A stretch of DNA of 64,000 nucleotides from a virus. Lineage: Duplodnaviria > Caudoviricetes. How positions within the stretch are numbered: the first letter of the stretch is position 1; each line of letters opens with the position of its first letter. The notes below the pieces were generated by a model. That model was given only the letters and a program-made list of their open reading frames with translations, ran no database searches and was not told the DNA's origin. Below, piece after piece: positions 150-55,498 of this stretch. The stretch is taken from the IMG/VR virus record IMGVR_UViG_3300045771_000049, positions 32,001 through 96,000 of that record; one strand, written 5' to 3'. Position numbers and translations under genes: made by a program.

Positions 150-719
150 ATGCGTAATTTCATCACGATCATTGAAGCCTATCAGTACCAGATGTTCCCA
201 CCCGAACGGCTGTATCATACCACCTCGCCGTTTGCCGCGTTCGAAATCCTCACCCATGGCGCAGTGCGGCCGAAAGACCCTGACGGCTTCATCTCGTTTT
301 CAGAAAAACCGCATCTGACGGACATCACCGCGCACGGCGCAACCCTTGTGTTTGATCTGCGCAAGCTCTACGCCCAGCTTGAACCGGTCGAATATACCGA
401 GGAATGGGCACACGAACATGCCGCCCAAGCCCGCTACATCGCAGGCGATGGCTGGACGGCCCAGTTCGAATATTCATCCGACGATGGGGACGACGAGTTT
501 GACGATGATGATGGTTACGATGCCGCCTATGCCGCTGCTGAAATCGACGCTTTCCTGGCCAAGGCCGAGGAAGACGAATGGATTTCGCTGCATCCGGGCA
601 TGCCGGTTCAGTTTCGTCCGGATGCCGTGGTCGCGATCATTCTCGACGAGATCGAGGCCGACACCCAAAGCGAATTGACGGCGATGGGCTACGGCCACGT
701 TATCATTCAGCAGGCATAA
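150..719 (+). CDS. ADP-ribosyltransferase-fold protein with N-terminal leader (putative virion-internal protein)
   Basis: LYHTTS...ISFS...AEEDE ART-like strand motifs; MRNFITIIE leader; acidic insert. Confidence 0.6.
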   Translation: MRNFITIIEAYQYQMFPPERLYHTTSPFAAFEILTHGAVRPKDPDGFISFSEKPHLTDITAHGATLVFDLRKLYAQLEPVEYTEEWAHEHAAQARYIAGDGWTAQFEYSSDDGDDEFDDDDGYDAAYAAAEIDAFLAKAEEDEWISLHPGMPVQFRPDAVVAIILDEIEADTQSELTAMGYGHVIIQQA

Positions 720-1506
720 CCTGCATTCGCCATGCAGGTCCGTCAGTGTCCAATTGTCGATTATAATATTCACGCCCAAACGCGGTCAGACGATACAATT
801 TGGTTCGAGTAGCACTATCATAACGTTCAACGATGATATCACCGAATTTGGTCGCGGTACATAGCTCAGAGACGCGCCCATCGACAGGATGGCGATATCC
901 CCCGTGCGAACTTTTAGACTTGGCTTCGAGGTCTATGTTCAACGCCTGATTCAGCGCAACACATAACATTTCTTTAGTCACTATAGGATGATTTTGCAGC
1001 GTCTCACAAATGACCAGATGTTCTTTGCCGAGTCTCGCAGGTTTGCGCCTAGTCTGACTCTTGACTTTTAGCTTGGTTCCTCGCCCTCCCATGTTGGAGG
1101 CTGTCTGCAACATTTTCACCTGTGCGTCAGTGGTTTCGGCGGCGTAGACCTTGCACGGTATCTCAACCCATCGTTCATATTCGATCCGTTGCGACGATCG
1201 CGCCCCGATATCGCTGAGTTGCAATGCGCGTTCAGCATCGGCCAATTTAGTTTCACAGGAAAACCAACGCTGAATACCATAAATAAGTTCGTATTTGACT
1301 TTACCATGCACGATTCGCACACCGATCGCCTCGACGCACCCGATTGCATCCATCGACGGCACCAGCACTGCATTGCAAAAGTCCTGATCAACCTGATGAC
1401 GTTGCGAAGCCGATACAGTGATATCCCGCAACGGGATTTGCTCATAGTACGGGCGAAGCCGCAAGGACGCCCCGATTAGGGTAGCGTCGAGAATTTTTGC
1501 GACCAT
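703..1506 (-). CDS. ParB/Srx-like N-terminal domain protein with possible C-terminal HTH
   Basis: IPLRDI...AIGVR...YELIYGIQRW...IPCKV pattern typical of the ParB-like fold; ATG abuts the stop codon of the upstream gene. Confidence 0.6.
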   Translation of the reverse strand: MVAKILDATLIGASLRLRPYYEQIPLRDITVSASQRHQVDQDFCNAVLVPSMDAIGCVEAIGVRIVHGKVKYELIYGIQRWFSCETKLADAERALQLSDIGARSSQRIEYERWVEIPCKVYAAETTDAQVKMLQTASNMGGRGTKLKVKSQTRRKPARLGKEHLVICETLQNHPIVTKEMLCVALNQALNIDLEAKSKSSHGGYRHPVDGRVSELCTATKFGDIIVERYDSATRTKLYRLTAFGREYYNRQLDTDGPAWRMQVMPAE

Positions 1507-2520
1507 TTAGAGATTGCTGCGATACAGGCAGAGGCGCTCAGTGGCATTTAATTTCTTGTCGTAGGTCTCATCACATCGCCGAGCCGCGACAGCCTCCAGA
1601 GCCGACTGGTATGAGAGCGGAAGCTGCCGACCGGTTCGGATCACCGCCGCCGCAGCCTGCCACAAATAGGGTTCGGCCCGCCGCAGAAAATGATCATGCT
1701 CGCTAGCCTCCTCCAGTAATTTCACAACGATGGCAATGTCTTCATCGGCGATACTGAGGTCAGCACTGTTTAGTGAATCGAACTGGCTACCCCACGGAAT
1801 CGTGCCGCCTAGAACGACTCCAACTAACGCTGCATTTATTTGCTCTCTTCCTGCGACCGCCTTCCTGCCTCCACAGGCAAATCGACTAATGTTGATATCC
1901 GGATCAAGTCTCGCCCGAATGATAGCCCGCGTTCCGGCCGAAATTACCACCCCACGCGGATCAAGACTCTTAACGATTTTCTTTCCCACGCGCATGCCAT
2001 GGGAATTCAGGTCAACCAATATAACCTTTGCGAACTCCTGTGAAACATTTGCAACTATAGTGTACTTGAACGGCGTATCGCCAATGTCCGGGCGCTGAAC
2101 GCGGACCATGTAGAGTGCTTCTAACTGGGTTTCACCATCGATCGGAAATAATGCCGATCTAGATAAGATATCGAGACCACCGCCGTCCACCGAAATCGCC
2201 GCTTTTTCTACCCACATAGTGATCGCAGGAGTGAACGCCATCTTGCCGTCGAGCAAACCCAGCCAGTAATCGCGGTAGCTTATGGCGTTCCGCTTACGTG
2301 CTGCAAGAAATGGTCTCTGAACCGAATCGCGGGCCATTTTGATGTTAAGAGCCACAGGATCGCGTTCCATATCAACAAGCCGGGCGCGCTCCGCCCATAA
2401 CGGTTCGGTCAGCCCGACTTTCTCCCAGTCATTTAACGTCACATGAGTCTGCCACTCTAAACCACCGCCAGGGAGTGGTTGGGGCGGCATGGGACGCAAT
2501 TTTAGACTTGAGTTGGCCAT
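1507..2520 (-). CDS. DGQHR/DndB-like domain protein
   Basis: FTPAIT...PIDGETQLEA (DGQHR variant)...LVDLN...SLDPR pattern. Confidence 0.65.
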   Translation of the reverse strand: MANSSLKLRPMPPQPLPGGGLEWQTHVTLNDWEKVGLTEPLWAERARLVDMERDPVALNIKMARDSVQRPFLAARKRNAISYRDYWLGLLDGKMAFTPAITMWVEKAAISVDGGGLDILSRSALFPIDGETQLEALYMVRVQRPDIGDTPFKYTIVANVSQEFAKVILVDLNSHGMRVGKKIVKSLDPRGVVISAGTRAIIRARLDPDINISRFACGGRKAVAGREQINAALVGVVLGGTIPWGSQFDSLNSADLSIADEDIAIVVKLLEEASEHDHFLRRAEPYLWQAAAAVIRTGRQLPLSYQSALEAVAARRCDETYDKKLNATERLCLYRSNL

Positions 2521-2594
2521 TTTTAACTCCGTGTGAATAGGGTAAAGTTGACCCCATTTACATAGGGGCGGTGATCGATCCAGACAAGTGTATT

Positions 2595-3701
2595 TTAGGC
2601 GGCGACAAACTGAAAAATGTTTCCGGCCAAATGAACAGTCCGGTTAAAGATATGAAGTTCGATTAAATTGTTCCATTCATCTGAGTGGATTGGCTGCAAC
2701 GATTTCACGCTGTTGCTGATCCGCTCCAATAATCCTTTCCAAGTTACCCGACCTGTTTCACCGCCGACTGCGTTGATCAGAAACTCCTCCAAGGTGACGA
2801 CCTTGATCGTCAGTTCAGGATACTTCGTACGAATCCGCATCATGATACTGGTCTGGGTGTCGGCGACAAACGCCTGTTTGGCCGAGGAGACCATGGTCAC
2901 GCGATTACACCATCCCGAATTGATGGCCTTCTTGCAGGTCTCCTGGAGCATCGCGAGGGTAATCGGGGCCGACTTTACTTCAATTGTATAGTCATCTCCA
3001 TCGATATCGCCCACGCCACTCTTGTCATTGGACTGCAAAAGGGTTTTGCGGGACACATTGTTATCACGCTCGTGGGCGGCCGACCATGCAACCGTTTCAA
3101 CCCGCTCGCTGGGATACTCTTGGAGAAATTGATTGATGATCATCGATGCTAGGTCTGGCTCGACCTTCGATGTAGTCACCGGCACCGTGTGCCTTCGCTT
3201 TGACATCACGCGATACCGTGCTGCCAAGGCATCGAACACCTCGATCGCATGGCCCGACTCGATCAAATCAATAAATCTCAAGAACAGCCATCGCACATCT
3301 TCACTACGAAACGATCCCCGAAAGTCCCAATCAAACACAGTTGGATTCATCAAACAGCGACGCACCCCAGCACCCGGATCGTTGCTGATCAGCGTATGAT
3401 CGAAATGCTCACGCGCAATGGGGGTGATGATATTACCCACCGTGCGCAAAGTCGGATGCGAGGAGTCAAAATATGTCATGTCACTGAAAAAACGGGTGTT
3501 GCACGCCGGTACAACAACCTTGTAAGCAGCGATACAAAAGACAGCCGTGGTGGTGACGTAGCTGCCGTTATGCCCAGCAAATCCGTCCGCCGTGGCGAGA
3601 CGCTCCGCGAGATCACGGACACACTTGGAGGGAAGCGTGTCAGCGTAGAGACGATCTCGAACCCATAGGTTAAGCCGTCCAGTAACGCGATCAATCGGCA
3701 T
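2595..3701 (-). CDS. putative PD-(D/E)xK restriction endonuclease
   Basis: GDID...IEVKS catalytic-like motif; ATG at 3701 with a GGGGGAGA SD overlaps the end of the MTase gene. Confidence 0.6.
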   Translation of the reverse strand: MPIDRVTGRLNLWVRDRLYADTLPSKCVRDLAERLATADGFAGHNGSYVTTTAVFCIAAYKVVVPACNTRFFSDMTYFDSSHPTLRTVGNIITPIAREHFDHTLISNDPGAGVRRCLMNPTVFDWDFRGSFRSEDVRWLFLRFIDLIESGHAIEVFDALAARYRVMSKRRHTVPVTTSKVEPDLASMIINQFLQEYPSERVETVAWSAAHERDNNVSRKTLLQSNDKSGVGDIDGDDYTIEVKSAPITLAMLQETCKKAINSGWCNRVTMVSSAKQAFVADTQTSIMMRIRTKYPELTIKVVTLEEFLINAVGGETGRVTWKGLLERISNSVKSLQPIHSDEWNNLIELHIFNRTVHLAGNIFQFVAA

Positions 3702-10414: not shown

Positions 10415-10813
10415 TCAACCTTGGTTCTCAATGTATTTCCTGATCGTCTCCTGTGATGCATTGCCAACCGAACAGGCGAAGTAGCTGGGCGACCAGAACG
10501 TGTGCTTCTTCCAGAAATGCCGTGATAACGCGGGTGCGTGATGTGACCATAGATCATGCGTCGTCTCGGATTTGAGCTTGCTCACAATCTGCGTGACCGA
10601 AATGTTCGGCTTATACGACACCATCAGATGGATGTGGTTCTTGTCCACTTCTATTGTATCGATCTCGAAGTTGCTCCGCGTAGATATTTCAAGCATCTTG
10701 GCTTTGACCTCATCGCCATAGGTGATAAGCAGCTTCTTGCGGTATTTGACGGTGAATATCAGATGAACGAGCAAGAGAAACTTTCTGTGGTCTTCGGATG
10801 ATAACAAACGCAT
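10415..10813 (-). CDS. tnpA: Y1 HUH transposase
   Basis: HLIFTVKYRK; HIH motif; FWSPSYF...IRKYIENQ. Confidence 0.95.
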   Translation of the reverse strand: MRLLSSEDHRKFLLLVHLIFTVKYRKKLLITYGDEVKAKMLEISTRSNFEIDTIEVDKNHIHLMVSYKPNISVTQIVSKLKSETTHDLWSHHAPALSRHFWKKHTFWSPSYFACSVGNASQETIRKYIENQG

Positions 10814-10855
10814 TCTTATTTACACCAGATTGCCATGTGTTGTATAAATAGAAAT

Positions 10856-12106
10856 ATGAAAGCGTTCAAGTATAGACTGAAGCCGACTAGCGAGCAAGAG
10901 GGCGCATTGCGTCAAACTGGCGGTGCTTGTCGTTGGCTTTGGAATAAGATGCTCGAACAGAACAAAGCCAAATACGAACAAGAAAAGAAATTTGTCTTCA
11001 AGTATGATTTGGTCGGGTCTCTACCAAAACTGAAAGAGCTACATCCGTGGCTGAAGGAAATGCCTAGTCAATCGTTGCAGCAGAGATGTTGGGATTTGGA
11101 TACCGCTATGAAGCGGTGCTTCAAGTCGGGATTTGGATTCCCGAAGTTCAAATCGAAAGATGATGAAAACGACACGTTCCGTATCTCCCAGACCAATGGG
11201 CATATTAAAGTCACACGGCAGGCGATCAAGCTACCAAAATTAGGATGGATCAACTGGCGGCGTCATCGACCCATCGATGGCAGATTGATGTCTGTCACCA
11301 TCAAGCAGGAGGGCATTCGCTGGTATGCTATTTGTTTGTGCGATACAGGCGAGGTGCTGAACCAGATCAGCGTTTGTGAAGATGACATCGTTGGTATTGA
11401 TCTTGGATTATCCTGCTTTGCCATGACCAGCGATGGCGAACTATTTGAGAAGCCAGCCCAATGCTACCAACGACTCAAACATGAGCAACGGAAGTTGAGT
11501 CGGATTGACGAGTCGAACAAGAAACAAGGCATTACCAAGTCCAACAGAAGGCTCAAACAGAAACAAATATTAGCCAAAACGCATCGTATTATTAGCGATC
11601 AGCGATATGATTTTCATCACAAGACGAGTAGAGAGATAGCCAATTTCTATAAGTTTGCTGGCATGGAAGACCTACATATCAAAGGAATGATGAAGAACCA
11701 CTGCTTAGCAGGTTCAATAGCTAAGGCAGGCTGGCACTCATTCCGAATGATGATACGATACAAACTCAAAGACCAAGGCGGCGATCTGTTACTGGCGGAT
11801 CGGTTCTATCCAAGTACCAAGCTGTGTTCGAGTTGCGGTCATAAGCAGGCGATGACGCTTGCCGATCGCACGTTCACATGCGAATCCTGTGGGATGGAGA
11901 TGAACCGAGATGCCAATGCGGCGATCAATTTGAAGCTGTGGGCGATGAGAGAGATGAATAGGGCTGGGACAGTCCGAATCTACGCACGGGGAGATACCGC
12001 CATCGGGGACGAAATACGTAAGTCGTCTAGATGTGTATCATTGAAGCGTGAAAAGTTCCGAGACAATCAGGTCTTGGAAGCCGCGACCTCTTTAGGGTCG
12101 CGGTAG
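10856..12106 (+). CDS. tnpB: RNA-guided nuclease TnpB
   Basis: N-terminal KAFKYRL HTH; RuvC motifs GIDLG, EDL, RDANAA all intact; CxxC...CxxC zinc finger; TATAAATA at 10843-10850. Confidence 0.95.
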   Translation: MKAFKYRLKPTSEQEGALRQTGGACRWLWNKMLEQNKAKYEQEKKFVFKYDLVGSLPKLKELHPWLKEMPSQSLQQRCWDLDTAMKRCFKSGFGFPKFKSKDDENDTFRISQTNGHIKVTRQAIKLPKLGWINWRRHRPIDGRLMSVTIKQEGIRWYAICLCDTGEVLNQISVCEDDIVGIDLGLSCFAMTSDGELFEKPAQCYQRLKHEQRKLSRIDESNKKQGITKSNRRLKQKQILAKTHRIISDQRYDFHHKTSREIANFYKFAGMEDLHIKGMMKNHCLAGSIAKAGWHSFRMMIRYKLKDQGGDLLLADRFYPSTKLCSSCGHKQAMTLADRTFTCESCGMEMNRDANAAINLKLWAMREMNRAGTVRIYARGDTAIGDEIRKSSRCVSLKREKFRDNQVLEAATSLGSR

Positions 12107-12667
12107 TTCACATGAATATCGTTCCGATATGTTTCCGCTATCCAGTTTATCCTGGTCATAGTTCGCGAATTCAGATCGAATTTGACTTGGATTGAATACT
12201 ACGTATTGCGTAATGGGCGTTTTTCCATCCGGACTATCGGTTAACGTGTCCGGCAGGACGATCCCATCATAGCCATTGGCTTGGAGAAATTGACGGGCAG
12301 CAGGGTAATCGGTCGTGTCACCATTCATCCGGATTTGCCGTCCGCCGACCACGTAGTCGGGTTTTCTGAATGTGGTGAAACGATCGACCAGATCACGGAT
12401 TTCATTGTAGCTCTTGATCACCCAGGGATGCTTCAAGCGCAACCGCACCGGCATGACCGACGCGCCCTGTCCCCGTGCGGCAAAATCGGCAAACCCTGAA
12501 GCCGCCTCGGGATTATCCGTAAACCAGATGCCCAATGGACCTTCGCGCGATCCACTGCCCAGCTTACTGCCCATTTCAAAGGTGTGAAAATCTTTGTTAG
12601 TGCCGTGAAATGCTTTGATATTGAACCCAAGCTGTTCGGGACGGCCGATTAATTCCATGAGCCGCAT
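12092..12667 (-). CDS. ART-PolyVal-like ADP-ribosyltransferase domain protein
   Basis: FHGT, GIWFT, VMPVRL, GYDG, VVFNPSQIRS; last codons now supplied by the IS end. Confidence 0.8.
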   Translation of the reverse strand: MRLMELIGRPEQLGFNIKAFHGTNKDFHTFEMGSKLGSGSREGPLGIWFTDNPEAASGFADFAARGQGASVMPVRLRLKHPWVIKSYNEIRDLVDRFTTFRKPDYVVGGRQIRMNGDTTDYPAARQFLQANGYDGIVLPDTLTDSPDGKTPITQYVVFNPSQIRSEFANYDQDKLDSGNISERYSCELPRP

Positions 12668-15600
12668 CAGTATTTGCCTGTGCGCGTGGGAGTCGTGGCC
12701 GCCACTCTTGGCTGGTCTTGTGCCGCGCTCATATCCACAGAAACGTTTGGCGTGGTTTCGTCGGTCGCCTGCTTCACATCATTGACCTTAACGTTGATAT
12801 CGCGCTTCGGCACATCGTGCTGGGTTTGTGTCCCGGTCCCGTTTTTCCATTTGACCGCGAACCGGTAGAACGCGCTGGTCGGATGAGGCCGGTGCGGTCG
12901 GCGGGCCGGAGCCGAGGTGCCGCCACCAAACCCATCGGTCCGCAGATTGAGACCGGGTACGCCTGTGCCGATCTGCACGATCCCAGGCGGATGAACCACC
13001 GCGCCCCCAGTGGCAATCGGATCGCCAGAGACATCCTGGATCGTGCCGCCATTCAGATTAAGCGCAATGATCCGCAGATCGTCCGTGTTCTGATTATCGC
13101 CGATAGTATAGGAAAATACTATCGCATTGCCCGGTGCCGGATCGCCCATGTAGGTTGCGATGCCGCCATCATTCAGGCTCAAGGTTGGCGAACCCGTTAC
13201 CGTTACCTGTTCGCTCAGGTAAAGGGTCATCAAGGCAGTCGAACCCAGCGTCAGCGAACCCGAGCCATTGGTCACATCAGCGCCGGTAATCGCCACCGAG
13301 ATGATGATCGCTTGGTTGCAGCCGACGGTATCCTGTGCATTGCCGGTTTCCGACGTGTTGCTGGAGTCAATCCCCATGATAACGGCCATATCAACGGCCG
13401 AACAGGTTTCCGCAACGCCAGCGATATAAATCGCTGTTGCATTGGTCTGATCAAGCGCGAGACCGGTGTCTGTGCTATTCGCCACCGCCCATTCGGCGAT
13501 CTCACAGGCATCGGCAAGCTCGCAAAGCTCGGTCACATCATCAATCGAGGTGTCAAGCGCACTGGTGGCATCGGCAGACAGTCCGCCTTCGATAATAGCC
13601 GCAAGAGTGATCAGAGTGGCATCCGTGCGGTCCGCCATGCCCCCCGTTTCGACCACCGCCTGCGTGCTGATCAGAACACTATCGGTCAGGTCCGCCGCAA
13701 CCCCGAACTCGATGATCGACGCCAAAGTCATGTAAGTGGCATCAACCACTTCGATCGTCAAATTGGATTCCATCACCGGCACGAGTGTCACGATGGCATC
13801 GATACACATTTCGCGCGCGACCGCATTGACCTCTTCAATATCCGCATAGGTGTTCCAGATGCAATCGACTTGGTCGGTCGCACCCCCCAGTTCAGCAATG
13901 GTCGCCGCGAACCACACAAACACGGCGATCTGATCCGTTATCGTTTCGGCTTCATCCACCCCAATCCCGGAGAAGTTGCCGCCATTGCCACTATCACTGG
14001 CGCCTTCGAGTTCATCGACCTCGCCGACGAAAACATCATCCCTCGTATCCATCGAGTCTACACAGTTGCCAAACTCTGCGATCGTTGTAATGAAGGTCGC
14101 CGTGCTGTCGGCGATATCGCTGCATGAGCCGAGATCACCAGCGCTGCCGCCAAACTGACTGAAGGCGGTGTCAGGCAGGTCGGCACAGGACAAGAAGTCT
14201 CTGGTATCGCCATTGAAATTGCTGCTCAGCGTATCGAAACTGTCGAGCGCTGCGCATAGTTCTGCCACCGTACTGGCGAAGATCGCGACGACGCTGGCCT
14301 GATCGAGGGTCGCTTCGGTTTCCTCTGTATCTCCATCGAACAGGCTGGCAAACGTATTGACACTATCTTCTGGCCCGCAATTTTCAGGCGTCTCACCAAC
14401 GAACAGATTGGCCCGATTGTCGGTCAGATCGAGCGCGATCGGTATCTCGTCGATTTGGGCGACGAAGATCGCGGTTATGCCGCTCGTATCCCCAATGATG
14501 CCGATCTCGTCGGTTTCCCCGCTATAGGTGCTGGCGATGATAGCCGACAGGTCAACCAGAGCGCCGGTTTCATCGGTCTCGCCGCCCAGCAGGTTCGCGT
14601 AGGTATCGGTCAGATCAGACGCCGCGCCAATTTCAGCGATCACGGTAGCAAACACGGCCACCACGTTCGTCAGATCGGTGCTAGCGCCGGTTTCATCGGT
14701 CTCGCCGACCCATATACTATCGGCGGTGTCTACGGTCTCAGTGAGGCCCAGCGGCTCGCTTACGTCACCTGGGGCGATGTTCGCGGCGAACGGAGCATCA
14801 AGCAGGTTACAAAGCTCCACAACCGCACCCCAGTAGGCGCTTGGCCCGACATCAACGAGGTCCTCGGCGTCAGGAAATTCGGCGATGATCCCCTCGGTGA
14901 TGTCTACGTCTACCGGCTGGTCAAGTAGATCAGCGCTCTCATCGACCTCACCGACGAACACGCTGAGGGCTTCGTTCGTGAGGTCCAGCGCCGTTCCGGT
15001 GTCCGTCGTGTTGCCTAGGTAGACACTTTCGTAAGTGTCGAGGTGATCCCTGGCGAAACAGAAATTGAACGCGCTGGCGACAAAATCGGCCTGCGTGTAG
15101 CAGGTCTCATCCGCTTGGCCGGTTTCGTCGGTTTCACCCACGTAAACACTGGCGATGACATCAGCCCAATCACTCGCACCAGCGGTCTCGGATGCATCAC
15201 CGCCATATTGCGCCTCGAAGGTATCGAAACTATCGATCGCAGTTCCGGTTTCGAGGCAGTCAACAATATAATCAACGGTGGTATCACACTCATCGGCTGA
15301 AGACGCAGTTCCTTCGTTAATATTCGCGTTGCCAATATGACCCGCGTTAACGATTTCGGCCGCGTGCAGGGTGTCGCTGGTCGCTCCGACGAACAGATTG
15401 TCGGCGGTATCGGCCAGATCGAGCGGGGAGGCGAATTCCGCATTGGACCCGATGAACACGGCAGTGGCGCTGAGAGCATCCGTGCAGCCCTCGGCTTCGC
15501 TAATTGCCCCGCCAAACATGCTGTCATATTCTTCGGCATCATCCAGCAAGCCGTAGATTTCGCTGGCGTTACCGTTGAACAGATTGAACCCGTTATCGGA

Positions 15601-37950: not shown

Positions 37951-38407
37951 TCTCACCGAGACGCGAGCGGCGTCGCTCTATCACGGTTGCGGTCTCGGCG
38001 GCGCCTTGCAGATCATCGCGCGGAATACCCTGGAAGACCGCACCCAGCACGAATTAGCCCCCGGCAGCGAGCCGGTCACCGGAACCTCGTTGAGCCGGTC
38101 GCTCCGCGTGGCCTGGGGCTTTGGTGATGTGGTGTTTGAGTTCGATCAGACCCGGCTGCGGCAGCGGTTTCGGCTCATCCCGGTGGATTACTGGCATCGT
38201 GCCTTGGAACCGGACTTGACCGGCGTGGGTCGGCGGCGCGGCAAATATGCCGAAGCGGAAGAATTTCTCATCGGGCCGTTGACCAACGTGATGCGCTATG
38301 TCACGGCCATCCACATGACGCCCCAGCGACTGGCATGGGCGATGAAGTATCATCAGGAGCAATCCCAGCCGCTGCTGACACATCCGTTGCTCAAAGTCAT
38401 AGAGTGA
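37937..38407 (+). CDS. ART-fold protein
   Basis: MLVSDLTE leader; LYHG...SLSRS...EAEE; paralog of the 54950 gene. Confidence 0.7.
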   Translation: MLVSDLTETRAASLYHGCGLGGALQIIARNTLEDRTQHELAPGSEPVTGTSLSRSLRVAWGFGDVVFEFDQTRLRQRFRLIPVDYWHRALEPDLTGVGRRRGKYAEAEEFLIGPLTNVMRYVTAIHMTPQRLAWAMKYHQEQSQPLLTHPLLKVIE

Positions 38408-38466
38408 ACTACCCCCGCCCTAAAGAGGCGGGGGCTTCCAAGACCAAATCGTCTGGCGCGTTCTTG
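38404..38466 (-). mobile_element. 63-bp non-autonomous IS605-derived mini-element
   Basis: minus strand TTAT|CAAGAACGCGCCAGA...GTCTTGGAAGCCCCCGCCTCTTTAGGGCGGGGGTAGTTCAC. Confidence 0.75.
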
Positions 38467-38478
38467 ATAAATAAGTTC

Positions 38479-39675
38479 ATGCGCTATCGTGAAATCTGCC
38501 GCATTCGGCCGCTGCTCGAAACGTACCGGTTTCTGACTCGTGATGAGCGGGGCAATGACATCTCACCCGATGAACTGATGGACGACGTGGACGAGCCGAA
38601 GATCATCGTGCGGTGGGGGCGTGATCGATATCAGGATGAGTTGATCGCTGTATTCCCGCTCGATGATGGGTATGATGAGCAAAAGCGCTTCCATGTTATT
38701 CTTGACGATCAGAGTGCCACGATCGAACGGGAGAGTTTTCAGTTTGAGGCCGCGCCAATTGTCAAATATCTCTTGAGTCGGTGGCCGCAATACGCGAGCT
38801 TCACATTGCACTCCATGCCCTCTTATTACAGTGAAACGGCCCTCGGGGACGTCGAAACATTGGCTGATCTGGCCAAACATACCAAACGACCTTCGGTCAC
38901 TGATCAGCGAATTTGGTACCATGGCACCTCGTCGGTACATGCGCCGGAAATTCTTCGGCTTGGACTTCGCCCGCAGGATGCCGATAATCGGCAATATCGC
39001 GGCATGCATGGCAGCAAAGAGAACATGGTCTATCTGACGTCCGATATCGACACCGCCGAATTCCATGCGAAGAATTCGGTCAAGCATTTTGGCGGGGCGC
39101 CCACGGTGTTGCGGATCGACATTTCCGGTTTGGAGGCCAATATCCGCACCGATCATGACGTGCGTTTCACGCCTTTGGCGGCGGAGCGTAACGCGCAGAA
39201 TCAGGGTGATCTCAAACGTATCCGGGCGAAACCGGGACAGGCCAGCTACATGGGTCTCAAAACCATTTCGTTTGCCGGACGTATTCCGCCGAGCCGCATT
39301 TCCATTCTGTCCCAGGGCGCGGACACCAAAGCGGCCCCGCGTTTGCAGAAGATTGCGGGCCAGTATGAGTTTCTCAAAGCCCTCGGGGCACTCACCTCGG
39401 GTATTGCCGCCGCCTACATGGATCAGTTTTTTCATATCATCGGCGCCCAGCCGTCCGGTTGGACTGGCACGACCAAACGCTATCCGGACAGCTACCGTGA
39501 GAATGTGCCCTTGCTCATCAATTCGATTCACAATGGACGGCAGGCACCGGCCAGCTACGCGCAATGGATTCGGGGGATGTATCGGCGGACCGGGGCTTGG
39601 CGCACACGCGGCGGCGTTTACACGCAGATCGTCACCTTGATCGCCGATGAGATCAAGCGCCTCAGCACGGTCTGA
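38479..39675 (+). CDS. multi-domain protein with ART-fold domain
   Basis: TAAATA at 38468; MRYREI..LLE leader; WYHGTS...GLRP...VYLT...IPPSRI. Confidence 0.75.
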   Translation: MRYREICRIRPLLETYRFLTRDERGNDISPDELMDDVDEPKIIVRWGRDRYQDELIAVFPLDDGYDEQKRFHVILDDQSATIERESFQFEAAPIVKYLLSRWPQYASFTLHSMPSYYSETALGDVETLADLAKHTKRPSVTDQRIWYHGTSSVHAPEILRLGLRPQDADNRQYRGMHGSKENMVYLTSDIDTAEFHAKNSVKHFGGAPTVLRIDISGLEANIRTDHDVRFTPLAAERNAQNQGDLKRIRAKPGQASYMGLKTISFAGRIPPSRISILSQGADTKAAPRLQKIAGQYEFLKALGALTSGIAAAYMDQFFHIIGAQPSGWTGTTKRYPDSYRENVPLLINSIHNGRQAPASYAQWIRGMYRRTGAWRTRGGVYTQIVTLIADEIKRLSTV

Positions 39676-39836: not shown

Positions 39837-40874
39837 TTATTCATCTTCTGACAATTTCGCACTGCCTGCTTTATCAGGATCAAAATTCGCATGGGCGGAG
39901 CGTACCTGATTTGCCTGAAAGGCGATCGTAACCGCATGCGATTTTCCGCGATTGCCCGGATTATAGCGGTCGATGTGCCGCAACCCGTCGTATCCGAGTT
40001 CTTCGAGCCAGCGATTCGCTTCAGTTTTGAACTCGATGGTGTCGGTCTCACCACCAAATAGCTGACTTTCCGACTGCCAGTCATGGTAGCCGTCCGTATT
40101 CTGCCAGAGTGTTTTATAAATCTCGCGCCCATAGGCAGAGGCGATCCGTCCGGAGGCCAACATCGTTGCATGGCGCTCAGCTTCTTCGGCCTCCCGTTGT
40201 TCAATCCTGTCAAGACGTTGCTTAATCTCCTTTAGGTCGTATTCAACTGCTTTCTCAACGTCCGTGATGTATTCTTCATCGTTTTCGCCGTCGTCGTAAT
40301 CATCCGGATCGATGTCCGCATGTGAGTCAGCGCCCTCAAGCGTATACAACTGATCTTCGAGTTCCTCAGTCTCGGTCCGTTCCCGATGCTCGTCCTCTAC
40401 GTCGGCCTCATCCGACCAGTTATAGGCTTCCTTTTGGAGATCGTGCCAGAACTCGATATGCTCAGCCCCATCCGGAAAACAATGGTCGAAAATGCGTTTG
40501 ATTTCGGCGAAGGGATAGACCTTATCAAGATCGAAAGGATTCTTAACTTTTAGGAAAACCTTGTATACGGTGGGGGCTGGCTCGTCGTCGGTATCGTTAC
40601 CCCACGACGTGCCGGGCTTCGAATAGCCGCTGGCAGCATCGGTATCTCTGGTCGCATAGGCACCCCGTCCGTAGGCGAGGTTCTCGTCTGGCGTCCGGTC
40701 GAGATCGACTTCGTCGAAATCGCCATTGGGCGTCCCGAAATAATGCGGATCATCCGGATCGAACCCCATCTCGCGCGCACGTGTCATGCGCGCTTCATGT
40801 GAATTATCTCCAGGTGCGGGTGGTCTGTCAGTTAGACCCTCAATCAATGCGATATAGCGCCGGATAATATTCAC
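39837..40874 (-). CDS. ART-PolyVal-like protein with long acidic insertion
   Basis: MNIIRRYIALIE leader; RAREMGFD...YGRGAYAT...VKNPFD...GYDG...QVRS; TAAATA at 40901-40906. Confidence 0.75.
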   Translation of the reverse strand: MNIIRRYIALIEGLTDRPPAPGDNSHEARMTRAREMGFDPDDPHYFGTPNGDFDEVDLDRTPDENLAYGRGAYATRDTDAASGYSKPGTSWGNDTDDEPAPTVYKVFLKVKNPFDLDKVYPFAEIKRIFDHCFPDGAEHIEFWHDLQKEAYNWSDEADVEDEHRERTETEELEDQLYTLEGADSHADIDPDDYDDGENDEEYITDVEKAVEYDLKEIKQRLDRIEQREAEEAERHATMLASGRIASAYGREIYKTLWQNTDGYHDWQSESQLFGGETDTIEFKTEANRWLEELGYDGLRHIDRYNPGNRGKSHAVTIAFQANQVRSAHANFDPDKAGSAKLSEDE

Positions 40875-40981
40875 GATTCTACCAACTACCTATGTTCTGA
40901 TATTTAATGAATATTCGAGTTCGTGTACTCCTGGTGGGGCAACTCACAGCGCGTGCGCTCAGGTTTGCCCTAAATAGCGGC

Positions 40982-41521
40982 ATGCGCTATCGTGAACTGA
41001 TGATCGAGACGACTATCCCCGGTGTGCCACCCAGCGGCAAATTCATTGCCTATCACGGCACCGGGGCGAAGATCACCCAGTTCTTTCAGCCCTCGCTGGC
41101 CGGGCATTTCTTTACCCAAGACAAGGACTACGCCAAAGGCTACGCGGGTGGCAAAACACCGCTGTCGAAAATCGACAAGCCTAAGAAAACCCGCAACTAT
41201 CTGCTCACGGTCGAGCTAGAGATCAACCACATGTTTGACACGAAACATGATCCTCAGGCCTTGGCGTATTACAACACGCGGTTTGTTCCGCAGATCAATG
41301 AAATTCGCGCCAAATATCATCAACCGCTGGTGCCGATCCTCGATCCTGGGCGGTTTGTCTCATTTGTCAATGCTGACGATTTGTACCGCCACTTCATGCG
41401 TTTCAAGCCCGACTATGACGGGATGCTGGTCGATGAGGGCAGCTTTACGTCTCCGGCCATCGTCCCATTCAACGTCGCGCAGATCAAGATCGTGAAGACC
41501 GAGATCGTCAAGTTTGACTAG
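40982..41521 (+). CDS. ART-PolyVal-like protein
   Basis: TAAATA at 40971; MRYRELMIE; AYHGT...HFFT...YA...YDG. Confidence 0.75.
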   Translation: MRYRELMIETTIPGVPPSGKFIAYHGTGAKITQFFQPSLAGHFFTQDKDYAKGYAGGKTPLSKIDKPKKTRNYLLTVELEINHMFDTKHDPQALAYYNTRFVPQINEIRAKYHQPLVPILDPGRFVSFVNADDLYRHFMRFKPDYDGMLVDEGSFTSPAIVPFNVAQIKIVKTEIVKFD

Positions 41522-41730: not shown

Positions 41731-42489
41731 TCATAGCGCGAAATGCTGACGCAATAGTCGGCTGATCATGGCATCAAGCGCGTCTAATGTGGCACCCTCG
41801 GCATGATCGACGTAGCGTTCATAGGACTTGCTTTTGGTCGCCATGAGATGTCGATTGCCTAAAATCGTGTTCAGCATCGCCGCTCGCATCGTCTCAGGCA
41901 CTTTTCGCAGCACACGAATGAGATCATATGCCACGGTGTGGGCGTAGGCTTCAAGTTCATGCGGTGCCGACAAATACCGATCATCAGTTGCACTACTGAA
42001 GTCGCCGCGTCTGCAGGAACCCGGCGCGTTAAGCTGATCCCGCGTAAATTGCTTTTTAAGCAACTGAACCACATGAACAAACTCATGCCCAACAGCACCA
42101 GCAAACAACTGACATACTTCATCGAAAACCTCATCGCTTTCCGAAGCCGCTGCCAAAACCGGGTACGGTAGATAGATGTTAACCTTTTTGCTCACGATGC
42201 CGGTTTCAGCCCGGACCTCCGAGCCAGCGCGATCGATCTGAATTTTGACCGGAGGGGAACTGAAACTGAAATGGCGTTGCAGCCAACCACCGTATTGCTT
42301 GACCAAATCCGCCATGATGTTCTGCAAATCATTTTGCAACTTGTTGCCGAGTTGCCGGGCACTGCCAAAATCGCCATTGAAATCGGCAAAAACCGCATTG
42401 AAACTTGCCTCTGCGCGATCAAACACGAAGGTGTCAATCGCGCGTTCGTCGGCTTCGACCAGCTTAATCCAATGTGTCAGGGCTTTCAC
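41731..42489 (-). CDS. zincin-like metallopeptidase with leader
   Basis: HEFVH + ELEAY; MKALTHWIKLVE leader; TAAATA at 42496-42501. Confidence 0.7.
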   Translation of the reverse strand: MKALTHWIKLVEADERAIDTFVFDRAEASFNAVFADFNGDFGSARQLGNKLQNDLQNIMADLVKQYGGWLQRHFSFSSPPVKIQIDRAGSEVRAETGIVSKKVNIYLPYPVLAAASESDEVFDEVCQLFAGAVGHEFVHVVQLLKKQFTRDQLNAPGSCRRGDFSSATDDRYLSAPHELEAYAHTVAYDLIRVLRKVPETMRAAMLNTILGNRHLMATKSKSYERYVDHAEGATLDALDAMISRLLRQHFAL

Positions 42490-43119
42490 TTGAGATATTT
42501 ATCCGAGACGGATCGATTACGCCACCCAGCCGTAGGTCCAGTGATCGTCCTCTTGGGCGTCACAGGGCTGCCCCAGATGGCAATCGTCCATTGGAGCGCC
42601 ACATAGTAGGCAGAACCGGCCTGCGGCGTCCCAGGTATGGCCGTGCGGGTTTGCGGGCATGAGTGGCGCCGGGGTGTTCGGCTGGCCTACTCGTTGGCAG
42701 CTATCTAGGTCATCATCGCCACCGACGACGAGCAGACAATGCTGCTCGTTGACGCAAGCAAACGCGAAGTTCGGCGGATCGGGCCGCCCGATGAAGGCAG
42801 CAGGCCGATCCTCAAGGCCGTGCCTGTTTAATATCGATCGCACCAGTTCTTTAGTGGTCATCAGCGGCTCTCCTCTGGCACAAGCCACGCATCCCGCGCC
42901 CCGATTGCATCGGTCAGATCGCTGGTCACGGCATAACGCTGGGCGCCTGCAAACTCCGGATCAGACGAGAGATTGTCGATCGGGACGGCTTTGCCATGCA
43001 CGAAGGCGAAGATCGGAGTGCCCCGACTATCGCAATAGAACTCCGTCACCGTGATTTCTGCGCCGGGATAGATGAACAACCTGATCTTTTGACCTGCACG
43101 AAATCCCATACCATCCTCC

Positions 43120-43622: not shown

Positions 43623-44375
43623 TTAGGCAATGTCGGTCTCATCGATCATGTTACTGGCCGGATAGAACGTCCCGGCATTACCGATCGCGGATTTGATCTG
43701 GGTTGACGCAAAGACCGCGTAGATATCAGCGGCCTTGCCACTGCCCTCCTGACGATCTTTCACATTCCGCACGATCAAGCCATCATAGCCCTTCTGTTTG
43801 GCCAAAGCCATAAGATCGTTGGTTGTCCAAACATCATCTTCATAATAAATGTCGCGCCAACTGTCGCCCTTCGCATTCACCCGCAGCGGTTTGATCATCC
43901 GCAGATAGGCCATGATCACGTTGCCACCCTCGGCAAAGCTCTTGACATCCTGAATGGCGTGTTGCCTGAAAAACGCACAGGCCGCGTCGAAGTCGTTATC
44001 CGTCATCAGGAGCTTGTGATATTGTTTTTGCTCGACCTCGGTGGCAAAGCCCCAATCCTCGGTCTGTTGTCCGGCATAGCTTTGCGCCATGTCGGTGGAA
44101 TTGGTGAAAATGAACGTGCCCGTAGGCACGCCGGTCTGGGTGTTCGAATTCGACATCGCTGGATCGAAGAAGCGAAAATCCGATTTGGTGCCATGATAGA
44201 CCACCAGCGGTTGGCCACTGCGATTGACCACCCGGCTCCGGCCAAACCACTGCCAAAACGCTTGGGTTGCGGTGGGGGTCTGGGCGATCGGACGTCCCAA
44301 ACTGTTGGTTGGCGGAGTCGTCGGTGCTGTCCGCTTGGCTTCGACCAGTTGCGACCAGTGGCGTAAGGTGTTCAT
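43623..44375 (-). CDS. ART-PolyVal-like protein
   Basis: MNTLRHWSQLVE; FWQWFGRSRVV..GQPLVVYHGT...GYDG...QIKSAIGN. Confidence 0.85.
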   Translation of the reverse strand: MNTLRHWSQLVEAKRTAPTTPPTNSLGRPIAQTPTATQAFWQWFGRSRVVNRSGQPLVVYHGTKSDFRFFDPAMSNSNTQTGVPTGTFIFTNSTDMAQSYAGQQTEDWGFATEVEQKQYHKLLMTDNDFDAACAFFRQHAIQDVKSFAEGGNVIMAYLRMIKPLRVNAKGDSWRDIYYEDDVWTTNDLMALAKQKGYDGLIVRNVKDRQEGSGKAADIYAVFASTQIKSAIGNAGTFYPASNMIDETDIA

Positions 44376-44388: not shown

Positions 44389-44538
44389 TTAAGGCGTCGC
44401 GCACGTCCCATTCGCCTTGTAGCCGGTCTGCGGACGCTTCGTAGCGGCCCGCAGACCGGCTAAGTCACACTGGCTGCCGAGTTTCGCCGGATAGCGATAT
44501 CCGTCCACCTGCTTTATCCACTGTCGAATATCGTGCAT
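44389..44538 (-). pseudogene. orphan leader-only ORF (MHDIRQWIKQVD...)
   Basis: TAAATA at 44544-44549; leader-like start, then a hairpin and an early stop. Confidence 0.45.
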
Positions 44539-44723
44539 GGTGATATTTAATGCACATTAGTTGCTCTCACGTTTCTTGCGGTTCTCGATCAAATACTCCC
44601 GCATGGTTTTGGTCCGTTCCCGGAGTTCGTCGTCGCTCAACCCTTCCATGGATTTCGCTAGAGCTTTAATCCAGGCCAAACGCGCCTGATTGTTCGGATC
44701 ATCCGACATGGTCATCGATCCCG

Positions 44724-46558: not shown

Positions 46559-47181
46559 CTTTCACATAACTGGTTAGGCATGACCATGGTCTGTCTAATT
46601 CGATGTTCTGTCAATGGCTTTTTAAATTGTTAATGACTTTTTGAAAATCGGTTCGATCGTAGTGAAGGAGGCTTGTTTTCTGGTACGCGGGATGATGATG
46701 TCTTTGGTTTTCAAAAACCGCCCACGATCTCCGGAGTTCAGAAAGCCGATCAGAACATGGCTGATGTCGGAGGCATCAACCTGGACCAGAAACACCGCAA
46801 TGTTGCCGACTTTTTCCAGGTAGCGTTTCATCGGTTCGGTTTTGGTGCTGAAATGCGCGTAAGGCACGTACACAAACTGCGAGTAACATTCGAAGGGCAG
46901 ATGCACGCCAACGCTGCCGAGAACGCGGCAATGCTGTTTCGCTTGATCGATATTCCAAAGGCTTAATTCTGTCATGCTGCGTCCTTAGCAAGGATTCGAC
47001 AGGGGTCAGATCAAGTTGGGGATCGTTTGGCTCGGCGGCTAAAATGAAGCTTGCTCATTTTCCCGCCAATCCGCAGGACCGGCCTCCACCAGTGGTATCC
47101 ACTGCCGAAGATTATATATCATCACCTATTTACAAACCGCACAGAAACATGTTATCTCTGAGTTAGGAAGGGACCCCTGCT

Positions 47182-49046: not shown

Positions 49047-49481
49047 CTATCGAAGGCGCAGATGACGGGGATCGAAGACGATCAGGGTGCCAACTTCACC
49101 CAGCAGAGCGTCGGGAAACTCGGCATCCGGCCGGGTAATTTCGATGCCATCGTAGCCCGCTGCTTGCAGTTCAGCGCGAAACGCCGCGACAGTCTCCGGA
49201 CTGCTTCGGCGCGGAAACCGGTCATAATATTGATTGATGGGTAATTTGAAATAACGCCCGTGCCGCAGCATCAGCGCCATGACGTGCTTGTCTTTGCTGA
49301 ACGCCGGGTAATTGGCAGCATGCTGCGCATCGCGGCTGACAAAATGACCGAGCAGCGCCGTGGGATGACTGCTGCTGTCGCCGCGATGCGCATCGTCAAA
49401 TGTCGTGAAATGGCGATCGGTGCCATGATAGACTGGATGTTCGCCTTCTACCAAACGCATCCATTGACGCAGATTAGACAA
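49047..49481 (-). CDS. ART-PolyVal-like protein
   Basis: MSNLRQWMRLVE; VYHGT...GHF...GYDG...VFDP; TAAATA at 49510-49515. Confidence 0.75.
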   Translation of the reverse strand: MSNLRQWMRLVEGEHPVYHGTDRHFTTFDDAHRGDSSSHPTALLGHFVSRDAQHAANYPAFSKDKHVMALMLRHGRYFKLPINQYYDRFPRRSSPETVAAFRAELQAAGYDGIEITRPDAEFPDALLGEVGTLIVFDPRHLRLR

Positions 49482-53360: not shown

Positions 53361-53366
53361 CTGAAT

Positions 53367-53441: not shown

Positions 53442-53490
53442 TGCGCAGCCGGGAGTTGCTGGGGCGTGAAGTTCATGCTAGCGAGCGAGC

Positions 53491-54859
53491 ATGAAACATT
53501 CAGTCCGGCCCATCATCGCGGGTATGGTTTTATTCTGTATCCCGGCCTTTCTCAATCGCTCCCCGCTGCTGTTTAGTGATAGCCGATCGTACTATATCGG
53601 CGGCAAAATGGTCCTCGATCGAGCCCTCAGCGTGGTGCAGAGGCTGCTCGGACGGACAACCCTATCGACCGAGGTGGTGGTCACCCACGCCAAAGCCGTG
53701 CGATCGATTTTCTATTCGCTGCTGTCCTACTTATTGGCCAGCAATATGACGTTATGGGCGATCATTCTGGTTCAGGCGGCGCTCGCGGCCTGGGTTATCG
53801 TCGCCACCAATGCCACATTCTGCCGCCCCGCCCGTTCGCTTCCCCTGCTGGTGTTTCTGACCGTGTTTAGCTCTCTGCCATGGGCGGTCTCGATGTTCAT
53901 GCCAGACATCTTCACCCCGTTAACCGTGCTCTCCTTGCTGTGTCTGCTGCTCGGGTGGGATGCTCTGAGTCCGACTCTGCGCAAGGGGTTGCTCGTGATG
54001 TTTCCGGCCAGCCTCGTCATGCATCTGACCAATCTGCCGATCGCCCTCGGGGTGACAGTGATGGCAGCGGCAATGCACTGGCGCTCGCTATGGGTCGAAA
54101 AGGCGCGGTGGCTCTCGGTCATCGCTGCGCTCTGTGTGGCAGTTCTGGCCATGCTGAGCGTCAGTGTCGTAGGCTTCAACAAATGGACCCAGGCCGCAAA
54201 ACCCGCCCTTCCTGCTGGCGCGGTCGATCGCGGATGGTCCGGCTAAACTGTATTTGCTGGAGCATTGCCCGCAAATCAAGCTGGTGATGTGCCAGTATCT
54301 GGATCGCCTCAACACGGACGCCGATGATTTCATTTGGAGCAGCAACGGGGTGTTTTCCAATGTCTCGCCAGAGGAACAGGATGCCATCCGCGCCGAGAAC
54401 GGGCCGATCGTGATCGCCGCCGCGCTCGAATATCCCTGGCTGCAAATCGAAGCCACCACATTCGATATCATCGATCAGTTGTTGTATTTCGATCTGCACG
54501 ATAGTCGGTTCCCCAATTCAGCCCAGATTACCCGCACCGAGATGACCAGTTCGATCGGACTGACCTATCCCGATTGGGTGTTCGCTTTGTCAGTGCTCGA
54601 TTACATCGTGGTGGCAGGGTCCTGTTTGACCCTGGCATGGCTCTGGGGAACCGGCGAACTCAGCCCGCAGATGAAGCAACTGATCAGTCTGATCATCCTG
54701 GCGGTGCTGCTAAATTCGTTTACCGGCGCCATCTCGCAACCCTCGGCGCGGTATGGCGCGCGGATCATTTGGCTGCTGCCGATGGTCGCATGGTTGGCGG
54801 CCGTCCGGGGAACTAGATTGCAGTTACAGAATGAGTTTCGCTTTGAGAACACCGGCTGA
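53491..54859 (+). pseudogene. polytopic membrane protein split by a frameshift near 54190
   Basis: ORF 53491..54246 continues in another frame as PPFLLARSIADGPAKLYLLEHCP into ORF 54254..54859. Confidence 0.6.
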
Positions 54860-54949
54860 TCGCGCTGCCGTCATGCTCGGGTTTAGCTGCGCGGTAGTTC
54901 ACGTGGACAATGCCGAGCATCCGTTCGGCCGGATGATAAATAGGTGGGT

Positions 54950-55498
54950 ATGCGCTACCATGAAATCATCACCAATTCTGTCACCGAAGCATTGGATCAT
55001 TCCCAGCGATTATTGTTTCACGGCACCACGTTCCTTCGCGCATCTGAGGTGATTGCTGATGACCAGCTAGATGCTCGAACCACCGACAATGCACGCGGCT
55101 TAGGTCATGGAACTAAGGGGGTCAGTTTAACGCGCTCGTACCAGTTTGCTACAAATTTCCGCTTGGCTCGTCGATCGGTGGTGTTTGTGCTCGATGGCCG
55201 TCATCTCGTTACGCAACCAGTGGCCTATTGGTCAGCCGAGGAGCGGCGCAAGAATGGTCGAGCAGATGAAATGGAGGAATACCATATCGGCCCAATCGCC
55301 CCTCTGTCGCGTTATTTGATCAGTATCAACAGCGTTGCATCATTCGATATGTGGTACAAGCAAGTTACTGATACCCCTGACAACCCGTATGAACCGGCAG
55401 AGAAAACCAATCTGGTGCGTCAGGCGATCGAACGAGGGTTTCCGATGGCCAAGAAGCTTTGGAACCGCTGGAAGCCGGTTCAAGGCGTCGCATCATGA
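54950..55498 (+). CDS. ART-fold protein
   Basis: TAAATA at 54937; MRYHEII..VTE; LFHGT...VSLTRS...EMEE. Confidence 0.75.
   Translation: MRYHEIITNSVTEALDHSQRLLFHGTTFLRASEVIADDQLDARTTDNARGLGHGTKGVSLTRSYQFATNFRLARRSVVFVLDGRHLVTQPVAYWSAEERRKNGRADEMEEYHIGPIAPLSRYLISINSVASFDMWYKQVTDTPDNPYEPAEKTNLVRQAIERGFPMAKKLWNRWKPVQGVAS

Follow-up and report, generated by a model that had tools for sequence, protein, structure and literature searches.

Two types of candidate capsid-targeting leader on ADP-ribosyltransferase-fold and other cargo proteins of an uncultured T4-core jumbo phage

We analyzed a stretch of 64,000 nucleotides of viral DNA (the window), comprising bases 32001-96000 of a 152,147-bp viral contig from IMG/VR (IMGVR_UViG_3300045771_000049; CheckV completeness 36%). 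Coordinates refer to the window unless they are marked as contig positions. An earlier note on this DNA had listed 14 dispersed open reading frames (ORFs) with an ADP-ribosyltransferase (ART) fold, located behind N-terminal leaders similar to the capsid-targeting peptides of phage T4. A scan of every start codon of the contig identified two such leader types on approximately 29 ORFs of at least 100 amino acids and on five short relic ORFs. This in silico evidence is consistent with, and supports, T4-style capsid targeting and processing by a prohead protease. In the reading favored here, to which we assign a probability of roughly 0.65, the tagged (leader-bearing) proteins would be synthesized late, dock to the prohead core, lose their leader to an S77 protease, be stored with the DNA and be injected into the next host, where the ART cargoes would carry out NAD+-dependent modifications.

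The type-1 leader followed the pattern M-R-Y-x-E-[ILF]-[ILM]-x-E, the type-2 leader the pattern M-x-N-x-L-R-x-W-x-x-L-[VILM]-E. Twelve of the 14 listed ORFs carried a leader, the two without being 26835-27932 and the truncated 31428-31763. Both patterns, ending in Glu as described before, proved to be real and were also found in front of proteins other than ARTs. An ART fold was found for 18 of the 29 tagged ORFs versus 3 of approximately 180 untagged genes (Fisher p ~1e-15, based on an approximate gene set). The tagged set had been proposed to consist of ARTs. It additionally contained a SprT-like metalloprotease (PF10263, E 1.5e-11), two ParB-C-like proteins, one protein weakly matching GNAT, and no fewer than seven cargoes for which no family was found in Pfam and PHROG. 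In 28 of the 29 tagged ORFs the motif [LIVMFC]-x-E ended at residue 8-14, with a small residue (Ala, Thr, Gly, Ser or similar) directly after it; a comparable position of the motif was observed in only 18 of 193 other genes. Codon usage in the leaders was synonymously variable (CGT/CGC/CGA/AGA, TAT/TAC, GAA/GAG and all Leu codons), indicating that selection acts on the peptide. The leaders were located outside the Pfam and phmmer matches, which begin at approximately residue 11-45, and formed low-confidence, disordered N-terminal tails in both AlphaFold2 (AF2) models (genes 54950-55498 and 38479-39675). In other metagenomic phages, orthologues of gene 38479-39675, like those of gene 150-719, share a conserved body that is preceded by a type-1 leader in some genomes and by a type-2 leader in others. 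As orthologues of one cargo carry either type, the leaders appear interchangeable, and the two types are probably functionally equivalent, swappable modules.

A candidate protease for such leaders is encoded on the same contig. The gene at contig 141408-142037 (+) encodes a gp21-type Peptidase_S77 prohead protease (PF03420, 107.5 bits, E 5e-32; phrog_207, E 8.5e-61), whose motifs GELDHP and GVSSRG align with the catalytic His and Ser regions of T4 gp21. The capsid protein contains the sequence L-M-E followed by A-A, which aligned with the T4 gp23 cleavage site L-T-E followed by A-E. As the leader ends match this capsid-site motif, they agree with the protease and its probable specificity. In T4, the first ten residues of the internal protein (IP) IPIII are sufficient for packaging of foreign proteins, gp21 cuts after Glu, and of the capsid-targeting residues 4 and 7 serve targeting, 8 and 10 cleavage (PMC9026906; PMC5694885). 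The likeness to T4 leaders claimed before was borne out by the T4 genome, which reads MKTYQEFIAE for IPII/IPIII, MKTFKEFTSTTTPVSTITE for IPI and MAKINELLRE for gp24. Judged by sequence, the type-1 leader shares the IPII/IPIII design save for one extra residue, and longer leader variants such as MRYHEIITNSVTE (then A) mirror IPI.

The contig represents part of an uncultured T4-core jumbo phage. This assignment was made because of its gp23-type capsid relatives and its portal, tail and head-module genes. Identities of the major capsid protein (T4 gp23 type, phrog_138) were 76.5% with its counterpart in Sinorhizobium phage Phosso (469 kb) and approximately 63% with its counterparts in Atu_ph07 (Agrobacterium phage, 490 kb) and PA5oct (Pseudomonas phage). 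The contig also encodes a portal as well as tail-fibre and baseplate proteins, and the head module combines the protease, a coiled-coil scaffold-like protein and the capsid protein. A megablast search with 20 kb against 50,697 phage records found no DNA relative.

Genes were found at or near all 14 positions of the earlier list, and HMM (hidden Markov model) and structure searches, which had been suggested as a check, supported an ART fold for 13 of them at graded confidence: nine were ART-PolyVal paralogues and four were assigned by fold or profile. The exception, 36523-36888, is described below. Using the curated cutoff of 31.2 bits for Pfam ART-PolyVal (PF18760; Tox-ART-HYD2-like clade), six ORFs of the window scored above it (37.5-90.4 bits), and three scored below (17-26 bits) and were recovered by an HMM built from the paralogues of the contig. 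This HMM detected all nine and, beyond the window, seven additional copies, i.e., 16 hits per 152 kb. ORFs 150, 36523, 37937, 38479 and 54950 gave no PF18760 match.

The strongest match was obtained for 28978-29577 (+; 90.4 bits, whole model covered), which starts with MRSREFLE then A, followed by 43623-44375 (-; 85.1 bits; type-2 leader MNTLRHWSQLVE then A) and 12092-12667 (-; 67.5 bits, E 2.7e-18; leader MRLMELIGRPE). Gene 37393-37950 (+; 46.4 bits) has a GTG start, the leader (M)RYLEFMSE then T and a TAAATA box 4 nt ahead of the start. Gene 39837-40874 (-; 41.2 bits over residues 45-330), also with a GTG start, contains a long acidic insert; its type-2 leader is (M)NIIRRYIALIE then G, its TAAATA lies 26 nt upstream, and in the alignment its motif 1 reads YFGT, with the His replaced. 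Gene 49047-49481 (-; 37.5 bits) uses a TTG start and the type-2 leader (M)SNLRQWMRLVE then G, with TAAATA 28 nt upstream. Among the three sub-cutoff ORFs, 40982-41521 (+; 25.9 bits; paralogue HMM E 3.4e-35) carries MRYRELMIE then T and TAAATA 5 nt ahead of the ATG. Gene 26835-27932 (-), a divergent ART-PolyVal/DUF3990-like member (DUF3990 18.7 bits, ART-PolyVal 17.2 bits; paralogue HMM E 3.9e-33), has neither leader nor TAAATA; in the alignment, YRGD replaces YHGT and GYVG replaces GYDG. The third, listed before as starting at 31747 on the minus strand, is a frame that begins with TTG at 31763 (31428-31763, -). It is a remnant without leader in which the domain stops after its N-terminal half (26.4 bits over model positions 2-70 of 140; HMM E 5.6e-18).

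The active site of ART-PolyVal domains consists of a His in strand 1, a Tyr in strand 2 and an Asp in strand 5 (PMC5512222). Most of the paralogues keep [YF]HG[TS], A-x-x-Y and G[YF]DG in the alignment. The position of the strand-2 Tyr, tentative in this sequence alignment, was mostly Phe, with the conserved A-x-x-Y after it. The R-S-E motifs of the Alt/VIP2 type (Arg / Ser-Thr-Ser / Glu-x-Glu) were not seen among the paralogues, which have the motif-1 His and GYDG. An Arg in motif 1 was present only in 26835-27932, which matched just DUF3990 and ART-PolyVal, both weakly. All ART-PolyVal copies of the window are standalone ORFs of 111-365 amino acids, none being part of a large multidomain protein. 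Such an embedding is typical of the setting in which the domain occurs and does not define the domain family. A phmmer search with the product of 28978-29577 yielded 14,191 relatives among 1.84 billion representative proteins, with matches beginning at approximately query residue 11-20, i.e., past the leader. The best 150 of these relatives were almost all multi-copy giants, mostly of 700-7334 amino acids with up to 22 tandem copies. Outside the window, an iterative HMM search identified contig 101038-101976 as a further tagged ART ORF; a weak match to the frame 21928-22995 was dismissed as spurious or due to the leader. The sole two-domain cargo seen was a tagged 444-amino-acid protein at contig 123211-124545 (-), which combines ART-PolyVal with a second ART-like module (LYHGTG ... 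FSTTEDE ... EWEWVV).

The remaining four ART-fold genes belong to divergent families. Genes 54950-55498 (+), 37937-38407 (+) and the contig ORF 124866-125399 are mutually homologous. The AF2 model of the first (predicted local distance difference test, pLDDT, 58.8; predicted template modelling score, pTM, 0.61) was compared to 48,161 representative chains, and the top 36 rows were almost all ART folds: KptA (Z 8.8), yeast Tpt1 (8.0), Scabin (7.7), TreX (7.7) and DarT (7.6), continuing with pertussis, cholera-type and diphtheria toxins, PARPs and Arr. We assign the ART fold to this family because the list is uniformly ART, the single Z-scores being middling. In a Foldseek search with the same model ART families ranked first and none was significant (best E 0.017). 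Gene 54950-55498 starts with the leader MRYHEIITNSVTE given above, with TAAATA 7 nt ahead of the ATG. Gene 37937-38407, which owes its fold assignment to the alignment with 54950 and the model of the family, has the short leader MLVSDLTE then T, shares 14 nt with the end of the preceding ART gene 37393-37950, with which it is probably co-transcribed.

Gene 150-719 (+) encodes a divergent ART-like protein with the leader MRNFITIIE then A and the motifs LYHTTS ... FISFSE ... EDEWIS. No TAAATA was found upstream, and no Pfam, PHROG or PDB sequence match was obtained. Its family profile, built with 17 metagenomic homologues, matched the 54950/37937 family (hhalign 95.6%, E 1.2e-8), and the Atlas gave a DarT/PARP-like viral cluster as a lead. 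Gene 38479-39675 (+; 398 amino acids; leader MRYREICRIRPLLE then T) has a central fold of the Tpt1/KptA-like ART type with the motifs WYHGT ... VYLTS ... GLE/DHDV; eight homologues were found. For its AF2 model (pLDDT 70.8) Foldseek gave Tpt1/KptA with an E of 3.7e-4 and a probability of 1.00 over approximately 140-150 columns, then other ARTs. By sequence it showed no Pfam match at E 0.1 and no PDB match. According to the model, it would be an ART fold by structural likeness, not a member of the KptA family. PDB sequence searches with the five ORFs lacking a Pfam match gave no usable hit. An assignment of 150, 38479 and 54950 to ART-PolyVal was dropped because hhalign against the ART-PolyVal paralogues was weak (probability 0.2-27%, first motifs only).

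Gene 36523-36888 (+) has the type-1 leader MRYHQLRASEAMTE then S and TAAATA 6 nt ahead of the ATG. The ART fold proposed for its product was ruled out by a match to phrog_2579 'ParB C-terminal domain' (E 2.6e-13), and it is a paralogue of the C-terminus of contig ORF 22054-22998. Two further tagged genes of the window encode cargoes with no Pfam or PHROG match. These are 31795-32316 (+), with the type-2 leader MNGIRKWLRLVE then A and TAAATA 5 nt ahead of the ATG, and 41731-42489 (-), with a GTG start, the type-2 leader (M)KALTHWIKLVE then A and TAAATA 6 nt ahead.

The hexamer TAAATA occurred 84 times on both strands of the contig, approximately 41 occurrences being expected, and was preceded by C in 41 cases. 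Its distance to the next ATG showed a sharp peak at 4-6 nt (31/84, 37%) and a broad hump at 20-30 nt, control hexamers being flat. The 20-30-nt class was located ahead of tail-fibre, baseplate and other structural genes with Shine-Dalgarno sequences. The combined pattern TAAATA-N3-7-ATG-CGN-TAY was found eight times on the contig versus zero times in a reversed control. Boxes 4-7 nt before starts were observed on the plus strand at 31784, 36511, 37383, 40971 and 54937, with boxes on the minus strand at 42496-42501, 44544-44549 and 47127-47132; examples spanning TAAATA to ATG are 31784-31797, 36511-36525, 38468-38481 and 40971-40984. The earlier note had counted at least seven listed genes with TAAATA within about 30 nt of the start, and exactly seven of the 14 were found (36523, 37393, 38479, 40874, 40982, 49481 and 54950). 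The T4 late TATA box occupies positions -13 to -6, and a variant with a/gC at -13/-12 was reported for phage Aeh1 (PMC2988020); CTAAATA fits this T4-family late-promoter variant. With a box whose end lies 5 nt ahead of the ATG, transcripts would start at the A of that codon, and most tagged cassettes would be expressed from leaderless late mRNAs. This layout was also present on the untagged genes for TnpA, TnpB and a methyltransferase-like ORF and is hence a property of the phage, not of the tag. We met no report of a leaderless late-mRNA architecture in T4-type phages in the literature consulted.

Ahead of the 38479 cassette, with TAAATA 5 nt before the ATG and behind a terminator-like hairpin, a 25-nt promoter block, TTTTCTGGCGCGTTCTTGATAAATA, was found at 38443-38473 (+). 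It is repeated at contig 19684-19714 and 27759-27789, before two other, unrelated cassettes (at 19719 and 27796). A G+C-rich hairpin precedes two of the three copies (CCGCGAGG...CCTCGCGG; CCCCCGCC...GGCGGGGG). The block is a terminator-promoter junction reused between cassettes. Because terminator-like hairpins and the shared block precede some of them, the cassettes look like independent units. The five short relic ORFs (16-49 codons) consist of promoter box and leader, then a stop, and are often located directly before a full gene with the other leader type. One, at 44389-44538 (-; 49 codons), lies directly ahead of the ART gene starting at 44375, carries the type-2-like leader MHDIRQWIKQVD with TAAATA 5 nt upstream and could be either a leader relic or a small protein. 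A second (47039-47122, -; 27 codons) starts with MIYNLRQWIPLVE and has its TAAATA box 4 nt ahead; the others are located at contig 21933-22046, 24737-24787 and 124772-124876. These short ORFs appear to be remnants of cassettes replaced through recombination at promoter and leader.

Each of the approximately 30 late cassettes would then combine a (C/A/G)TAAATA box, a start codon usually 4-6 nt further on, a leader of 8-14 residues and a variable cargo. Through its leader, the protein would dock to the scaffolding core inside the prohead, and the gp21-type protease would then cut off the leader after the Glu. The mature enzymes would remain amid the packed DNA and be carried with it into the next host. 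There, the ART cargoes may use NAD+ on host proteins or nucleic acids at the onset of infection, favoring takeover or blunting defences. Several observations weigh against this scheme. The phage is uncultured, and docking, cleavage, packaging, injection, catalysis and targets are steps that we infer from sequence. The promoter assignment and the leaderless transcripts are likewise in silico predictions. Several leaders have Met or Phe, not Leu or Ile, at P3, and a Glu is missing at position 9-10 in some. A number of cargoes are strongly acidic (isoelectric point 4.2 for 150-719 and 4.4 for 39837-40874), unlike the basic T4 internal proteins. The motif-1 His (39837-40874 and 26835-27932) and the GYDG Asp (26835-27932) are gone in some ART paralogues. 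The 54950 model is of low confidence, and Z-scores up to 8.8 are within the range that unrelated models reach. Finally, the closest cultured relatives are devoid of the leaders.

This last point would also fit leaders that are not capsid addresses. They might serve expression from leaderless mRNAs, as a signal within the 5' coding sequence, or direct the proteins to another cell site or partner, with the ARTs acting late and unpackaged in the producing cell in the manner of T4 ModA/ModB-type enzymes. The box 4-6 nt before the ATG of most tagged genes means that the 5' coding sequence could matter for initiation by 70S ribosomes. However, the genes for TnpA, TnpB and the methyltransferase-like ORF have the leaderless layout without the peptide motif, and leaders are also present on genes with a 5' untranslated region of 26-28 nt or without a nearby TAAATA (40874, 49481, 28978 and 44375). 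Moreover, the leaders are conserved at the amino acid level, synonymous change being free, and end in the motif seen at the maturation site of the phage's own capsid protein. We consider this explanation unlikely.

Even if packaged, the tagged proteins could mainly be inert internal or core fillers or assembly aids, their ART domains being largely non-catalytic and diversifying under host immune pressure. The lost motif residues, the truncated paralogue and the many decayed leader relics would agree with such a role, as would the T4 internal proteins, which are abundant and not all enzymes (PMC3012670). Nevertheless, YHGT, A-x-x-Y and GYDG are retained in most paralogues, the ART-PolyVal domain is maintained in 14,191 representatives, and the tagging of three separate ART families plus a protease points to enzymatic cargo, which makes inert fillers rather improbable. 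We give still less credit to a selfish or neutral expansion, in which cassettes spread by recombination at the shared promoter and leader without a common function. Relics or tandem leaders at contig 21933/22054, 24737/24782 and 124772/124866 and at window 44538/44375, together with the promoter block in three copies, are what such a process might leave behind. It is at odds with intact open frames, with motif-conserving orthologues (39-73% identity) in other phages and with a promoter for each cassette and a terminator for some, and is very improbable. Packaging and injection of the tagged proteins is the reading we retain.

Among known systems, the internal proteins IPI-III of T4 are closest in design. 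In T4-like phages, the internal proteins combine a conserved leader with diverse cargoes (PMC9026906, PMC3012670), and those of the T-even phages form a diverse anti-restriction set united by the leader alone (PMC3012670). As here, a short N-terminal leader ending in hydrophobic-x-Glu precedes unrelated cargoes (MKTYQEFIAE or MKTFKEF...ITE in T4 versus MRY[RH]E[ILF]..E), together with a gp21-type protease, late-promoter control (predicted for the present cassettes) and a diverse set of cargoes with fast turnover. T4 has a handful of tagged genes and one leader class, whereas approximately 30 genes with two interchangeable classes were found here on 36% of a genome. The T4 cargoes are small basic inhibitors, those described here mostly predicted enzymes (ART folds, protease), and no cargo homology to IPI-III was seen. 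Furthermore, ipI-III have ordinary Shine-Dalgarno leaders in the T4 genome, while most cassettes here look leaderless at the mRNA level. T4 Alt is a packaged, injected ART, and virion delivery was predicted for ART-PolyVal domains (PMC5512222, PMC9503650). Alt is expressed late, carried in the head, freed by gp21 from an N-terminal propeptide, injected, and acts on host RNA polymerase and other targets (PMC5512222, PMC9026906); for the present ARTs, packaging is a prediction. Alt is a single protein of the R-S-E Alt/VIP2 clade, while the ARTs here are many paralogues, most of them of the H-Y-D ART-PolyVal clade, plus two divergent ART families.

The polyvalent proteins (Iyer et al. 2017; PMC5512222) contain the same ART domain, often multiplied, accompanied by SprT/zincin-like peptidases, ParB-type and GNAT domains, and are predicted to be virion-borne and early-acting. 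They fuse these domains in giant polypeptides, whereas separate proteins of 140-400 amino acids, each with its own promoter and leader, were found here. The ejection or inner-body proteins of phiKZ-like phages (201phi2-1, SPN3US) also form head-internal paralogous families that are cut after Glu by a gp21-related protease and keep conserved N-termini despite divergence (PMC5694885). Their propeptides mostly exceed 100 residues, the cleavage motif is A/S/G-x-E, the cargo is not rich in ARTs, and the phages belong to another lineage.

Phosso, Atu_ph07 and PA5oct showed neither leader and no ART expansion; one weak sub-cutoff ART-PolyVal match was found, in Atu_ph07. A scan of IMG/VR for the promoter plus MRYxE yielded 41 stretches, a number similar to what chance could yield. 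Only matches in long ORFs with leader residues [ILFV][ILV]xE and contigs with several matches were counted. Approximately 25 of the 41 extend into long ORFs in which the residues left free by the pattern agree with the leader (e.g., MRYHEIIAE, MRYREIIGE, MRYHEILRE), several of them in viral contigs of 265-607 kb with 36-57% GC. Their cargoes include ART-PolyVal, DUF3990-like, SprT-like and 54950-family proteins. Five such genomes had 1-7 ART-PolyVal hits per 415-607 kb versus the 16 per 152 kb here, which marks the ART expansion as exceptional in this phage. Cargo orthologues persist in other phages at 39-73% identity with their motifs conserved. The ART domain of 38479-39675 has a distant homologue in the cultured T4-type Vibrio phage KVP40. 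This hypothetical protein, KVP40.0290 (2063-3181 in the KVP40 sequence examined), has a CATAAATA box and the N-terminus MKNLKSFMEE, which makes it a candidate for a packaged ART.

Should the leaders prove to be capsid addresses, a motif of ten residues would identify injected proteins of giant phages, a class that so far has had to be sought by proteomics on virions from cultured phages. The tag would then be a sequence handle for the injected effector repertoire of uncultured giant phages, including cargo families without a known fold. The approximately 29 tagged genes, which include members of three ART families, one protease and seven or more family-less cargoes, are candidates for functions in host takeover or anti-defence. 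They also suggest a second way to deploy the domains of polyvalent proteins, as many small tagged proteins instead of one giant ('unbundled polyvalent protein'), and T4-type late promoters that drive leaderless mRNAs. T4 capsid targeting already serves to load foreign proteins into phage heads, which lends new natural leader variants and the rules they follow a practical interest for work on phages in laboratory strains. Whether a clade of uncultured T4-core jumbo phages loads dozens of separately encoded, rapidly shuffled effector enzymes via a two-code interchangeable tag behind leaderless late promoters is a broader proposition that we hold at even odds. What is new here is the scale, the two interchangeable leaders, the predicted leaderless late cassettes and the unbundled polyvalent domains; no new principle is involved.

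Some neighboring genes were noted. Beside the head module, contig 138273-139382 (+) encodes an extremely acidic protein of 369 amino acids without a family match. It starts with MRSLLE, which is type-1-like, and may be a prohead-core protein with the same kind of propeptide. The protease-scaffold-capsid module is bracketed by two paralogous HNH homing-endonuclease genes at contig 139402-141219 (-) and 144862-146565 (+), both phrog_3339 (E 1e-84 and 7e-95). In the window, an ORF of 3937 amino acids (12667-24480, -) showed as sole Pfam match an Ice-binding-like domain (residues 608-807, E 3.7e-49). TAAATA is located 34 nt upstream, and its stop overlaps the start of the tagged ART gene 12092-12667 (TGATG). 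Possibly it encodes a giant fibre or adhesin, which would recall 'hairy' relatives such as Atu_ph07. Two divergently oriented IS200/IS605-like transposase genes are located at 10415-10813 (-) and 10835-12106 (+), the larger one matching the phrog_506 transposase (E 1.4e-108). Both have a TAAATA box 3-5 nt ahead of the ATG, and the mobile element appears to be wired to the late promoters of the phage.

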